64,000 nt of DNA from Actinomycetes bacterium (GCA_023451265.1 JAEYAG010000059.1:1189-65188), one strand, 5' to 3'; positions 24,022-28,459 are shown, counted from the first letter of the stretch. A program made the numbers and translations. Notes: generated from the sequence alone by a model not told the origin.

Positions 24022-24603
24022 TCAGCCCTCGATGCGGTCGACGAGCTCGAGGCCGCGCCGCGCCCACTCGATCTCAACGCGGGCGCGCGCGGCGAGCCCC
24101 TCGTAGGTGAACCGCTTGTAGGCGATCGTGCGCTCGTGCTCGGCGGGCGGCGTCACCGAGAGGCGGCGGGACAGCATCGCGCTGCTCATCTGCTCGATGG
24201 CGTCGAGCTGCCCCTGGAACTGCGCGAGCTCGTCCTCCCACACGGCGATGTGCCGCTGCAGGAAGTCCCGCGCGGCTTCGGGCGTCGTGGTCGCCAGATA
24301 GGCGGCGCGCAGATGGGCGGGGTCGCGCACGCGCTGATAGTCCAGCGGCGAGGCCATCCACTCCTCGAACGCCGCGTTCCCGGCCGGCGTCACGTGGTAC
24401 ACGCGCCGGGTGCCGCGCTCGCCGCGCGCCTGCTCCTCGCCCTCGATGAGCCCGAGCGAGGCCATCTTGCGCAGCTCGGGGTAGATCTGCGAGTCCGGGG
24501 CGTGCCAGACGTGCCCGACCGACTGGGCGAACTGCTTTTGCAGGTCGTACCCCGACAGGGGGCCGACACGCAGGATCGCCAGCAGCGCGTAGCGCAGACT
24601 CAT
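24022..24603 (-). CDS. PadR family transcriptional regulator (VanR-like by context)
   Basis: ORF 24022..24603. MSLRYALLAILRVGPLSGYDLQKQF...IYPELRKMASLGLIEGE. GGAAGGAG SD. It is the last gene of the ligM operon. Confidence 0.85.
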   Translation of the reverse strand: MSLRYALLAILRVGPLSGYDLQKQFAQSVGHVWHAPDSQIYPELRKMASLGLIEGEEQARGERGTRRVYHVTPAGNAAFEEWMASPLDYQRVRDPAHLRAAYLATTTPEAARDFLQRHIAVWEDELAQFQGQLDAIEQMSSAMLSRRLSVTPPAEHERTIAYKRFTYEGLAARARVEIEWARRGLELVDRIEG

Positions 24604-24680
24604 GGGGGCTCCTTCCGCCAGACGAGCGTAGCGAGTTCGAGGGGCCCGGGCTGACCCGGACCCCTCGATGCGGCGAAGGA

Positions 24681-26087
24681 TCAGTCCTTCTTGTAGCCGG
24701 TGCGCCAGCCGCCGTGGTAGGTCTGGCGCGCCACCGTCGAGTACGGGACCGGCGAGACCACGACGCGGACCTCGGTCTGCTCGTGCGGCTCGACCGACGC
24801 CTTCGACGTGCCGCCGTCCGGCTCACCCCAGACGACCTTCAGCTCGGTGCCCTCCGGCACGTCGGGGTCGACCGTGGCCAGCGACAGGCCGCGGCGCTCG
24901 TTGGCGCTGTACCCGGTGAACATCGAGAAGCCCACGACGTTGCCGTCGGCATCCACGACCGAGTCGTAGTTCGCGGAGCCGTAGTTGGCCAGCGGCAGGT
25001 CGAAGAACTTGTAGTTCGGGCCGTCCACGTTCAGCGGCGAGGCGAGCACCTTGCCGAGGTCTTCGGCATCCCACGCGAGGGTGACCTTCTTGCGCTGCGT
25101 GGCCGGGTCGATCTTCTCGAGCGCGTCGCGACCGATGAAGTCGTGGTCGAACTTGATGAAGTTGCCGTAGCCGAGCTCCCACGGGGTGAGGTAGTAGTCC
25201 TCGATGTTGTCCGAGACGAACGATCCGGCCAGCGTGCCGGTGGCCTCGTAGCTGTCCACGCCGAGCCACTCGCGGTAGCCGCGCTCGGCCTCGCCGCTGT
25301 AGATGGCCGGCAGTGGCGAGGGGATCCACCCCGACTCGAGCGTGTTCGACGGGTAGGCGCGCGAGCCGACGGGCACGAGACCGAACTCTGCCCCCGCCTC
25401 GACGATCGCGTCGCGGATGTCGTCATGGTCGGCGTACGGTCCCCAGATCTCCAGTCCCGGGGCTCCCGCCATGCCGTGGCGCAGGGTGCGGACGTCCTTG
25501 CCGGCGATCTTCATGGTCGCCATGTTGAAGAACCCGATCTTCTCGAGCGGCCCGCCGTTGAGCTTCTCGATGACGTCCCACGCCCGCGGCCCCTGGATCT
25601 GGAAGCGGTAGTACTGGCGTGAGACGGCGTGGCCGTACGGGCGTGAGGGCGAGCGGCGGTCGACGGAGATGTCGAGGTTCGCATAGCCGCCGGTCTCGGC
25701 GTGGTACAGCAGCCAGTTGGATGCCGGGGCGCGGCCCACGTACACGTACTCGTCCTCGCCCTGGCGGAACAGGATGCCGTCGCCGATGACGTGCCCGGCC
25801 GCGGTGGTCGGCACGTACTGCTTGGCCTTGTCGACGGGGAAGTTGGCGACCGAGTTGATGGCGGTGTCGCTGATCAGCTTGATGGCGTCCGAGCCGTTCA
25901 GGAACACGTTGTCCATGTGGTGCGACTGGTCGTAGAGCACGGCCGTGTCGCGCCAGGCCTTCTGCTCCTTGATCCAGTTCTGGAAGTCGGCGGGCACGAC
26001 CGGGTAGATGTACGAGCCGATCTGCGAATTGCGCAGCATCTCGACCGGGTTGGTCTGGTCGAGCAGCTGCTGCAGGTTGTCAGCCAT
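24681..26087 (-). CDS. ligM: Tetrahydrofolate-dependent aromatic O-demethylase (vanillate/3-O-methylgallate O-demethylase, LigM/DesA family, GcvT fold)
   Basis: ORF 24681..26159 trimmed to ATG 26087 (GAGAGG upstream). Long blocks match what I recall of Sphingobium LigM: [105 protein letters not shown]. Confidence 0.8.
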
Positions 26088-26118
26088 GGGTGGAACCTCT
26101 CTGTTCATTGCGGTGGTT

Positions 26119-27009
26119 TCAGCTGAAGACGAGGGTGTGGTTGCCGTGCCGGATGACACGGTCTTCGGCGTGCCATTGCACGGCTCGCGAGAGCACGGCG
26201 CGCTCGACGTAGGCGCCGCGGGCCTGCAGGTCGGCGGCGGTCATCGAGTGGTCGACGCGGGCGACGTCCTGCTCGATGATCGGCCCCTCGTCGAGGTCCT
26301 TGGTCACGTAGTGGCTCGTCGCGCCGATGAGCTTCACGCCGCGCTCGCGCGCCTTGCGGTAGGGCGCGGCGCCGATGAAGGCGGGGAGGAAGGAGTGGTG
26401 GATGTTGATGACGGGCACGCCCACGGCATCCAGGAAGTCCTCGCTGATGATCTGCATGTAGCGGGCCAGCACCACGAAATCGACGTTGCCCTTCACCAGC
26501 TCGAGGATCCTCGCCTCGGCTTCCGACTTGTCCGGGCCCTGCGAGTGCACGTGGAAGAACGGGATGCCGAAGGAGCGCACGTCCTCCGCGGTGTTGGTGT
26601 GGTTGGAGATCACCATCGGGATCGACACGTTGAGTTCGCCGCGGCGGTGCCGCCACAGCAGCTCGAGCAGGCAGTGGTCGCTGGTGGATGCCAGGATGGC
26701 CATCCGCTTGGGCACCGACTGGTCGGTGAGCTGCCACGTCATGCCGTACGGCGAGAGCGTCTTGTCGAGGTCGGCCTCGATCTCGGGCAGCGCCGCGGTG
26801 AGCCCCTTGCGGTGGAAGACCACGCGCTGGAAGAACGCGCCGCCCTCGGGGTTGTCGGAGTACTGGTCGAGCGTGACGATGTTGCCCTTGTTGCGGGTCA
26901 CCAGGCCGGTCACCGCGGCGACCAGCCCGGCCTGGTCGGGGCCGTGGACGATGAGGCACGCGTGGTCGCGCAGCGCCTCGGTGTACACCGTCACCGCGTC
27001 GCCCCTCAC
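26119..27009 (-). CDS. purU: Formyltetrahydrofolate deformylase (operon-associated copy)
   Basis: ORF 26119..27039 trimmed to GTG 27009, which overlaps the metF stop (GTGA). ACT domain, then [10 protein letters not shown] and [18 protein letters not shown] blocks. Confidence 0.9.
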
Positions 27010-27881
27010 GAGTTCGCGGCGACGTAGTCGCGCGCCCACTCAGAGGTGGCCAGCAGGCCGCCGAACGTGTAGAAGTGCAGGCTCACCTCGCCCGACGACG
27101 GCTCCTGCGCCAGCAGTTGCGACAGGTCGCCCACGAAGCGGTCGGGGCCGGCGGTGCCCATGAGGTTGGTCAGGCTGAAGCCGTACTTCTTCACGATCAT
27201 CGCGTTGGCGCCCACGCCGAACCGGCGCGCGAAGTTGATGAGGCGCTTGATGCCGGCCGGCCCGGGCGTGCCGATGCGGATCGGGGTGTGGATGCCGCGG
27301 TCGCGCACGGCGGTGATCCAGGCGAGCACCGGGTCGGTGTCGAAGGCGAACTGGGTGAGGATGACGGCATCCAGCCCCTGGTCGGCCAGCGCGGCGGACT
27401 TGTCCTCGAGGTGGCGCCACAGCACGTCGTCGGCGATGTCGGGGTGGCCCTCGGGGTAACCGGCGATCGACACCTCCTTCACGCCGTACTGCTGCAGGAT
27501 GCCGGAACGGATCACGCTCAGCGAGTCGGGGTAGGGCCCTTCGGGCTCGGCCGGGTCGCCGCCGACGACGAACACGTGGTCGGTCGCGCCGACCGCCTGC
27601 AGGGCGGCGAGGAACTCCTCGAGCTGCGTCTGCGACCCGAGGCGCCGGGCGGAGATGTGCGGCACCGGGGTGAAGCCGAGATCCTTGACGGCCTTGGCCG
27701 CCGCCACCCGCATCTCGAGGTCCTCGTTGCCGAGGAAGGTGACGTTGATCTTCGTGCCGGCCGGGATGACCGGTGCGGCCTCTTCGAGCCCCGGCACATC
27801 CTTGCCGGTCATCTCGATAGAGAAGCCGTCGACGAGGCGGAGAGCGGCCGCCCGATCGGGGGCGGGGGAGATGGATGCCAC
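27006..27881 (-). CDS. metF: 5,10-methylenetetrahydrofolate reductase family protein
   Basis: ORF 27006..27881 (GTG, AAGGGA upstream). MetF-family blocks VFVVGGDP, IAGYPEGHP, and TQFAFD followed by PIRIGTPG. Confidence 0.85.
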   Translation of the reverse strand: MASISPAPDRAAALRLVDGFSIEMTGKDVPGLEEAAPVIPAGTKINVTFLGNEDLEMRVAAAKAVKDLGFTPVPHISARRLGSQTQLEEFLAALQAVGATDHVFVVGGDPAEPEGPYPDSLSVIRSGILQQYGVKEVSIAGYPEGHPDIADDVLWRHLEDKSAALADQGLDAVILTQFAFDTDPVLAWITAVRDRGIHTPIRIGTPGPAGIKRLINFARRFGVGANAMIVKKYGFSLTNLMGTAGPDRFVGDLSQLLAQEPSSGEVSLHFYTFGGLLATSEWARDYVAANS

Positions 27882-27926
27882 AGCGAGTCCCTTTCGGAGC
27901 GCTTCGTCGCGCCCTCCCTCGTCACG

Positions 27927-27946
27927 TTACCTATGGAGATAGGTAA
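27927..27946. promoter_or_regulatory. 20-bp AT-rich perfect inverted repeat TTACCTAT-GGAG-ATAGGTAA upstream of metF-purU-ligM-padR
   Basis: Read directly. It is the only strongly AT-rich element in the 224-bp gap between the VOC and metF genes. Confidence 0.55.
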
Positions 27947-28105
27947 TCGCAAGAGGGAAATTCTTCCCGGCCCCCGAGCGCACCATCCCCGCGAGGGAAC
28001 AACGGGCGGACGAGGGTGCGGGTGATCCCCGTTCTCTCGGCGTCCCATTGTTCTCTCGCCGATCGGCGGATGCCGGGGGCGCGGGCCCGCGCGGCGGCGC
28101 GGGGG

Positions 28106-28459
28106 TCAGCGCGGGAGCGGCGAGTAGAAGACCAGGCCGTTGCCCTGGCTGTCGTACGCGACGGCGCGGCGTTCGTGCGCGTCGTTGTAGGGGCCGCGCG
28201 CCAGTCCGCCGCCGTTGTCGTCGACGGCCTGGACCGCGGCATCCACATCGTCGGTCTTGATGCCCACCACGACCTGGCCCGGGATCGGGTGGTCGATCGC
28301 GGTGGCCAGGGCGATGGTCACCGTGCCGCCGTCGAGCGCGGCGAAGTGGTTGCTGTCGCGGAACTTCAGCGGGAAGCCGAGGGTCTCGGTGTAGAACCGG
28401 ATCGACTCGTCGAGGTCTTCGGTCGACAGCACGATCATCTTCACCTGGTGGCTGGTCAT
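28106..28459 (-). CDS. VOC (glyoxalase/bleomycin-resistance/dioxygenase) family protein
   Basis: ORF 28106..28459. IVLSTEDLDESIRFYTETLGFPLKF beta-alpha-beta-beta-beta module. GAGGAG SD. Confidence 0.8.
   Translation of the reverse strand: MTSHQVKMIVLSTEDLDESIRFYTETLGFPLKFRDSNHFAALDGGTVTIALATAIDHPIPGQVVVGIKTDDVDAAVQAVDDNGGGLARGPYNDAHERRAVAYDSQGNGLVFYSPLPR

Follow-up and report, generated by a model that had tools for sequence, protein, structure and literature searches.

Introduction

Converting lignin to chemicals meets a bottleneck at the demethylation of vanillate, and the textbook division assigns this step to the oxygenase VanAB in Gram-positive bacteria and to the folate-dependent demethylase LigM in sphingomonads. 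In Sphingobium lignivorans SYK-6, where the regulator DesR is of the MarR type, LigM is encoded in a ligM-metF-ligH operon. Here we analyse a metF-purU-ligM-padR gene unit in a stretch of 64,000 nucleotides from an Actinomycetes bacterium (GCA_023451265.1, JAEYAG010000059.1:1189-65188; this whole stretch is referred to as the window) and compare it with the closest described systems. With a probability of roughly 85%, judged from sequence comparisons, the unit is an operon that is induced by vanillate and serves O-demethylation by an oxygen-independent, tetrahydrofolate (THF)-dependent route.

SYK-6 passes the methyl group to THF and then oxidises methyl-THF (PMC11868366), and the window encodes an orthologous LigM and a homologous MetF of the same type. 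The two systems differ in gene order, which is metF-purU-ligM in the window, in the replacement of LigH, a formate-THF ligase, by the hydrolytic enzyme PurU, and in the fate of the product, which is predicted to enter PcaHG ortho-cleavage in the window but enters a 4,5-cleavage pathway in SYK-6. Regulation differs as well, the window having a PadR/VanR-type protein in place of DesR, which is described as regulating the vanillate and syringate catabolic genes of SYK-6 (bioRxiv 10.1101/2020.07.27.224295). The three functions LigM, MetF and PurU are also clustered in sphingomonad purU/ligM-metF loci and as ligM-metF-purU on plasmid pAt of Agrobacterium tumefaciens, but these loci lack a PadR gene, the neighbouring regulators on pAt being of the GntR and MarR types. 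The regulator is instead shared with vanR-vanABK of Corynebacterium glutamicum, where a full-length homologous repressor (PDB 6LG2) with the same vanillate-contact triad (PMC7090077) acts on an operator at the core promoter, and protocatechuate as end product is passed to pca genes. However, the enzyme of C. glutamicum is VanAB, a non-homologous, O2- and NADH-dependent Rieske oxygenase, and its regulator is encoded outside the operon, whereas padR is the last gene of the unit in the window. Within the actinobacteria, SesA (Sinomonas) and BrdA (Rhodococcus, Arthrobacter) are characterised THF-dependent, aryl-ether-cleaving enzymes of the GcvT superfamily, but they form a clade apart from LigM, to which they are about 27% identical, and cleave the methylenedioxy rings of sesamin and berberine, not the vanillate methoxy group (PMC5547118).

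Gene organization

The window has a G+C content of 71% and sits on contig C85 of a metagenome-assembled genome (MAG) of 3.07 Mb in 262 contigs, rated 90% complete. The nearest relatives of its LigM come from another MAG labelled Actinomycetes bacterium (97% identity) and from Microbacterium species (90-93%), and the source appears to be a Microbacterium-like soil or manure bacterium. An earlier note on this DNA, made from the sequence alone, had described five co-directional genes with tight spacing as one operon. Frame analysis of third-position G+C (GC3) and a listing of open reading frames bore out all five on the minus strand, each with coding-type GC3: a VOC gene (28106-28459), metF (27006-27881), purU (26119-27009), ligM (24681-26087) and padR (24022-24603). 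The GTGA overlap reported between metF and purU is present (GTG 27009-27007 over the metF stop codon TGA 27008-27006), and purU and ligM are indeed 31 nt apart. The overlap comes with a caveat: the PurU N-terminus M-T/S-x-H-x-x-A-L-R-D-H of about 20 relatives aligns to an alternative start, GTG 26994, and not to GTG 27009, so that the two genes may in fact be separated by 11 nt and not overlap. GAGGGG lies 7 nt upstream of GTG 26994, and only the closest relative, L022, shows an ATG at the position of the overlapping start. Under either start, metF and purU are tightly coupled.

Tight spacing thus held for metF-purU and purU-ligM but not for the two outer junctions. The ligM-padR gap, of 77 nt, includes a G+C hairpin of 14 bp, and the VOC-metF gap, of 224 nt, includes a promoter-like site and an operator candidate. 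Moreover, a VOC gene next to the cassette was not conserved in 80 related loci, among which only L022 has one, about 2.1 kb from metF. Both the gap and the lack of conservation argue against the VOC gene as first gene of the operon, and we therefore treat metF-purU-ligM-padR as a four-gene unit.

Identity of LigM

On the NCBIfam equivalog model for vanillate/3-O-methylgallate O-demethylase (NF047885; cut-off 580), LigM scored 872 bits. It stayed below the cut-offs of the sister models for DesA (605; cut-off 800), GcvT (82; cut-off 300) and DmdA (41; cut-off 410), and failed the sarcosine-oxidase and trimethylamine-N-oxide (TMAO) demethylase models as well. The solved structure of SYK-6 LigM (PDB 5tl4/5x1i) matches the protein over residues 4-463, almost without gaps (E 3e-216), and 23 residues in the segment of the catalytic tyrosine are identical in the two enzymes. 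The tyrosine of the window protein aligns to position 251 of the 5tl4 chain (247 in native numbering), and hence to the catalytic residue of the SYK-6 enzyme (Tyr247). Identity to LigM of Novosphingobium is 68%. LigM is the only member of its family in the whole assembly, which has a GcvT-like gene of its own elsewhere, on contig C232.

In a quick maximum-likelihood tree (IQ-TREE, LG+G4, SH-aLRT; SYK-6 LigM left out), the window protein fell within an actinobacterial clade of 47 rows (99, starred) beside a sphingomonad LigM clade of 17 rows (99, starred), and paralogues of 37-46% identity were placed outside. The starred actinobacterial clade takes in all actinobacterial LigMs, including a copy on a Rhodococcus opacus plasmid. 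Profile models, tree and the match to the solved enzyme agree, so that the assignment to LigM rather than to GcvT or DmdA stands, the tree setting the protein among the LigM orthologues.

Regulator, candidate operator and promoter-like site

PadR, a protein of 193 residues with the two domains of PadR subfamily 1 (PF03551 and PF10400), matches the C. glutamicum VanR structures 6lg2 and 5z7b over its full length (E 2e-44; residues 1-190 on 1-191). In VanR, for which 6LG2 is the vanillate-bound structure, the conserved polar contacts to vanillate are R148, Y103 and Y168 (PMC7090077). These align to R147, Y102 and Y167 of PadR, and V29 and L145 are kept too. The PadR-type regulator named in the earlier note is accordingly a VanR-type repressor by homology, and it is accompanied by a conserved candidate operator. 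This candidate is a perfect palindrome, TTACCTAT-N4-ATAGGTAA, at 27927-27946. It is the sole match in the window at up to three mismatches (0 expected by chance) and the sole match in the 3.07-Mb assembly, and 63 of 68 related loci have it upstream of metF, with arms that are conserved around a central 4 nt that varies. A -35-like hexamer, TTGCGA (27947-27952, minus strand), directly abuts the palindrome, and a -10-like hexamer of the TANNNT type, TAACGT (27924-27929, minus strand), was read 17 nt from it, so that the palindrome takes up the whole 17-nt spacer and extends into the -10 element. The same arrangement recurs over 59 palindrome-anchored upstream regions, in which a -35-like consensus T.GaCA abuts the left end of the palindrome and a -10 consensus TAa.gT overlaps its right end.

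Another palindrome, GGACAT-N-ATGTCC, was considered and rejected. It depends on the variable 4-nt centre and is absent from the window, and CCTAT-N4-ATAGG was preferred for these reasons. Most relatives (loci L033-L099) carry in addition a third CCTAT half-site 10-11 nt upstream of the palindrome and overlapping the -35 element (consensus CCTaT.GaCA), which is degenerate in the window (CCCTCT) and might be a site for a second repressor dimer.

One-carbon handling

MetF matches the SYK-6 enzyme S6MTHFR (PDB 7xg9) over residues 7-286 with E 7e-91, its match to the Pfam family for methylenetetrahydrofolate reductase (MTHFR) is weak (38 bits), and two canonical MTHFR matches lie elsewhere in the genome, on contigs C130 and C67. 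S6MTHFR, an enzyme that oxidises methyl-THF and shows hardly any reaction with NADH, couples with THF-dependent demethylases; it is the defining member of a family, type 4 MTHFR, that accompanies such demethylases (PMC11868366). The window protein, which belongs to an actinobacterial subclade, fits this family in its closeness in sequence to S6MTHFR and in the linkage of its gene to that of a THF-dependent demethylase (ligM in the same operon). It keeps the type 4 hallmarks Leu48, Arg78, Phe215, Phe269, Gly270 and Gly271, as do 62-69 of 70 Micrococcales homologues. At positions 49, 219 and 268 of S6MTHFR, the MetFs of Micrococcales cassettes have Gly (68/70), Phe (68/70) and Thr (64/70, with Ala in 5/70). 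In contrast, Pro49, Cys219 and Pro268 of SYK-6 are retained on pAt and in 67, 67 and 66, respectively, of the 67 ligM-linked MetFs of sphingomonads. Pro268 is described as conserved in type 4 and replaced by Thr in types 1 and 2, and the hallmark positions are credited with excluding NADH and binding methyl-THF (PMC11868366).

PurU, the predicted formyl-THF deformylase, scored 351 bits on the TIGR00655 equivalog (cut-off 286) and carries ACT (PF01842) and formyl-transferase (PF00551) domains. A second purU, 73% identical to it, stands alone beside a levansucrase gene at 54227-55108 (minus strand) and is probably the housekeeping copy; folD lies on another contig. Formate-THF ligase was not found in the whole, 90% complete assembly. 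The view that this operon has a dedicated metF and purU is upheld in that both are extra copies besides housekeeping ones. That purU takes the place of ligH is no peculiarity of this organism: it is the commonest arrangement by sphingomonad ligM, where purU adjoins it in 58 of 85 loci, and it recurs on pAt, where purU is co-directional with ligM. The sphingomonad and pAt PurUs are only 41-46% identical to that of the operon, compared with 73% for the second copy of the same genome, and the actinobacterial purU therefore looks like a local duplicate. This suggests that purU was recruited independently, by duplication, in the actinobacterial cassette.

Proposed function and alternatives

Taking homology as the basis for every step, we propose the following route. 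LigM would transfer the methyl group of vanillate to THF, yielding protocatechuate and 5-methyl-THF. Protocatechuate would enter ortho-cleavage by PcaHG (the beta-ketoadipate pathway), the genes for which lie at a distance of 15 kb. The SYK-6-type MetF would oxidise 5-methyl-THF to 5,10-methylene-THF, the chromosomal FolD would convert this to 10-formyl-THF, and the PurU of the operon would release formate and free THF, so that the cofactor is regenerated and the one-carbon (C1) unit disposed of. A dimer of the VanR-type PadR, bound to the palindrome between the -35-like and -10-like hexamers, would block RNA polymerase until vanillate binds PadR. Likely sources of vanillate are an adjacent hydroxycinnamate operon, predicted to convert ferulate to vanillate, and a secreted feruloyl esterase encoded in the same window.

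The surroundings fit this route. The genes pcaH, pcaG, pcaB, pcaD and pcaC, outside the operon, lie at 43822-47851 (plus strand), and the predicted product feeds into their pathway; pcaH and pcaG scored 340 bits on TIGR02422 (cut-off 296) and 159 bits on TIGR02423 (cut-off 126), and the models for pcaB, pcaD and pcaC match too. Genes like pcaIJ and pcaF (CoA-transferase and thiolase) are located at about 50634-53345. The window also contains pobA, two IclR regulator genes, the gene for the secreted tannase/feruloyl esterase, and the neighbouring operon for an acyl-CoA ligase, a MaoC hydratase, an acyl-CoA dehydrogenase and an ABC importer. The earlier note had found no vanAB in the window, and extending the search to the whole assembly (90% complete) likewise detected no VanA_C oxygenase domain; a LigB-type dioxygenase was not found there either.

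Several points weigh against the proposed function. A search of the accessible literature found no characterised actinobacterial LigM, and no enzyme, binding or growth data were found for any LigM of the Micrococcales, that of the window included. MetF differs from S6MTHFR at three type 4 hallmarks (P49G, C219F and P268T), and both its direction and its electron acceptor are uncertain because the exchange C219A reduced methyl-THF oxidation in S6MTHFR (PMC11868366). Two residues of the VanR pocket are changed in PadR (M133Q and H142S), and its effector could therefore be an analogue of vanillate. A strict sigma-70 promoter and terminator scan of 23900-28620 called no promoter, including at the promoter-like site of metF, and no minus-strand terminator. 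Absence of vanAB is not proven by a MAG of 262 contigs and 90% completeness. Finally, contigs from the RNA libraries of two metatranscriptome runs of one manure study cover padR, ligM, purU and metF at 97-99% identity, and one of them spans the metF/purU junction; they lend weak support to expression of the operon, but are no proof that the genes are transcribed or that they share one transcript.

The changed pocket residues M133 and H142 also bear on the alternative that survives best, namely that the operon works as described but on, and in response to, another methoxylated aromatic acid, such as 3-O-methylgallate, syringate, veratrate, isovanillate or homovanillate. SYK-6 LigM also accepts 3-O-methylgallate, as the name of family NF047885 implies, and many relatives have extradiol dioxygenase and aldehyde dehydrogenase genes directly upstream of metF. 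On pAt, the ligM-metF-purU set adjoins genes of the homoprotocatechuate pathway. Microbacterium was labelled on veratric acid in a stable isotope probing study of groundwater (PMC10602745), which cites Taubert et al. 2018 for a Microbacterium veratrate pathway. We nevertheless regard another substrate as unlikely: PadR keeps the three polar vanillate contacts of VanR, the assembly contains neither a DesA-type paralogue nor a LigB-type gallate/protocatechuate 4,5-dioxygenase, the extradiol dioxygenase gene of the window itself is 5'-truncated, an ortho pathway for protocatechuate is encoded within the window, and the neighbouring operon is predicted to make vanillate from ferulate.

Still less probable is a module that, as has been suggested for SYK-6, chiefly supplies methyl groups to biosynthesis (methionine, the folate pool) and does not serve carbon catabolism with C1 disposal. 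Such a biosynthetic link has been proposed for S6MTHFR-type enzymes (PMC11868366), and a gene for a MetE-like 5-methyl-THF methyltransferase lies 3 kb away (20328-21437), but this gene has an in-frame TAG, ordinary MTHFR genes are available for methionine synthesis, the operon is located in an aromatic-catabolic island, and its own PurU would destroy 10-formyl-THF, which points to disposal. That ligM might encode a glycine-cleavage T protein, a dimethylsulfoniopropionate (DMSP) demethylase or another non-aromatic aminomethyltransferase, as its general GCV_T folate-binding domain could have suggested, is already refuted by the models for GcvT, DmdA, sarcosine oxidase and TMAO demethylase, on which the protein reached 36-82 bits where the cut-offs range from 236 to 1164, the match to the SYK-6 structure, the tree and the distinct GcvT-like gene. 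A vanillate-inducible operon for THF-dependent demethylation thus remains the preferred reading.

Distribution and origin

The order metF-purU-ligM-padR is conserved in Microbacterium, Agromyces, Leucobacter, Arthrobacter, Sinomonas, Brevibacterium and other genera. Among an even sample of 201 genomes of the window's own family, the Microbacteriaceae, LigM exceeded the cut-off in 15 but not in the three congeners, while a VanA_C domain was present in 8 and never together with an above-cut-off LigM; the folate route is therefore the commoner one in the sampled family. Phylum-wide, LigM above the cut-off was found in 9 of 400 other genomes. The earlier note had contrasted the locus with VanAB of characterised actinobacteria, and the rarity implied by this was overstated: the cassette is found in many Micrococcales genera, SesA and BrdA have been characterised (PMC5547118), and a LigM-type gene has been predicted in an actinobacterial MAG of the Micromonosporaceae (PMC9296663).

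Four of the family genomes with a VanA-type oxygenase carry, in divergent orientation and adjoining vanA, a gene for a PadR homologue (45-58% identical). The padR-vanA spacer of all four contains a palindrome of the TCTAT-N4-ATAGA type (L199:6452-6471, L198:6614-6633, L200:8575-8594 and L201:8487-8506), which is the sole match in each 15-kb locus. As two of the genomes are congeneric, they amount to three independent cases. By their sequence, these palindromes are putative operators of the same type as that upstream of metF in the window, and they lend independent support to the proposed control by a VanR-type PadR.

No Micrococcales-type cassette was found among the plasmids of PLSDB, in which the best matches were 62-68% identical and came from Novosphingobium, R. 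opacus, Agrobacterium and Rhizobium. Recent transfer from sphingomonads was considered as an origin and rejected, since the actinobacterial LigMs form one starred clade of their own with internal paralogues, and since no cassette of the Micrococcales type was found on the PLSDB plasmids. Tentatively, and with somewhat less than even odds, the findings can be joined in a single reading. One Microbacteriaceae pair of VanR-type PadR and CTAT-N4-ATAG operator would have become attached to two non-homologous vanillate demethylases, with the LigM route the commoner. The cassette would have been assembled inside the actinobacteria from an old LigM/MetF lineage and a duplicated housekeeping purU, and its MetF would form a separate subclass of type 4 (G/F/T for P49/C219/P268), maybe using another electron acceptor, possibly NAD(P)+.

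The operon as such was correctly recognised, is well supported and is fairly ordinary, the same cassette being present in many related actinobacteria. Standard annotation would already name its genes correctly, and the understanding of the pathway is unchanged. The folate route forms no formaldehyde, and its demethylation step needs neither O2 nor NADH. Added interest lies in the shared VanR/operator pair, which with its candidate operator would offer a ready vanillate biosensor for the folate route, and in the MetF variant, a natural test of the residues that set direction and cofactor use of type 4 MTHFR.

Additional observations

Two of the plasmid loci have neighbourhoods of their own. On pRop44186_a of R. 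opacus (L112), a LigM orthologue, 67% identical and annotated 'hypothetical protein', has as neighbours genes for a 4-carboxy-4-hydroxy-2-oxoadipate aldolase and a second aminomethyltransferase with an MTHFR, the folate-biosynthesis genes pabB and one of the Mur-ligase family, and fdhD. On pAt (L113, 2647-9258), ligM-metF-purU adjoins hpaH, hpaI and genes for a dioxygenase and an isomerase, which hints at homovanillate as substrate in that lineage.

The hairpin in the ligM-padR spacer (24637-24668, minus strand) is a 14-bp inverted repeat, 93% complementary, with no U-tract after it. The spacer (24604-24684, 81 nt) folds at -43 kcal/mol (z -2.98), and the predicted structure has an outer stem in which CCUUCG is paired with the Shine-Dalgarno region of padR, GGAAGGAG. 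By this model the hairpin could damp translation of padR or serve as a U-less terminator, attenuator or stabiliser. Downstream of padR, between this gene and the convergent aldehyde dehydrogenase gene, there is an imperfect inverted repeat of 30 nt at 23927-24005.

The RNA-library contigs left 27900-28063 almost uncovered and 28392-28700 without cover, while DNA runs cover both regions; this gap is unusable as evidence for a transcript start, since both RNA runs belong to one study and are represented by contigs only.

Two genes beyond padR are disrupted. The MetE-like gene (20328-21437, plus strand; 370 bits on NF005085 for its first part) is interrupted in frame by the stop codon TAG at 21153-21155 (FLE*D), which either makes it a pseudogene or reflects an error of the assembly. 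The catechol-2,3-dioxygenase-like gene (21587-22465, minus strand) lacks about 45 N-terminal residues; its homology to full-length relatives begins at 22444-22465, at the start of the divergent aldehyde dehydrogenase gene (22442). In many relatives, an intact pair of extradiol dioxygenase and aldehyde dehydrogenase genes stands immediately upstream of metF in the same direction.

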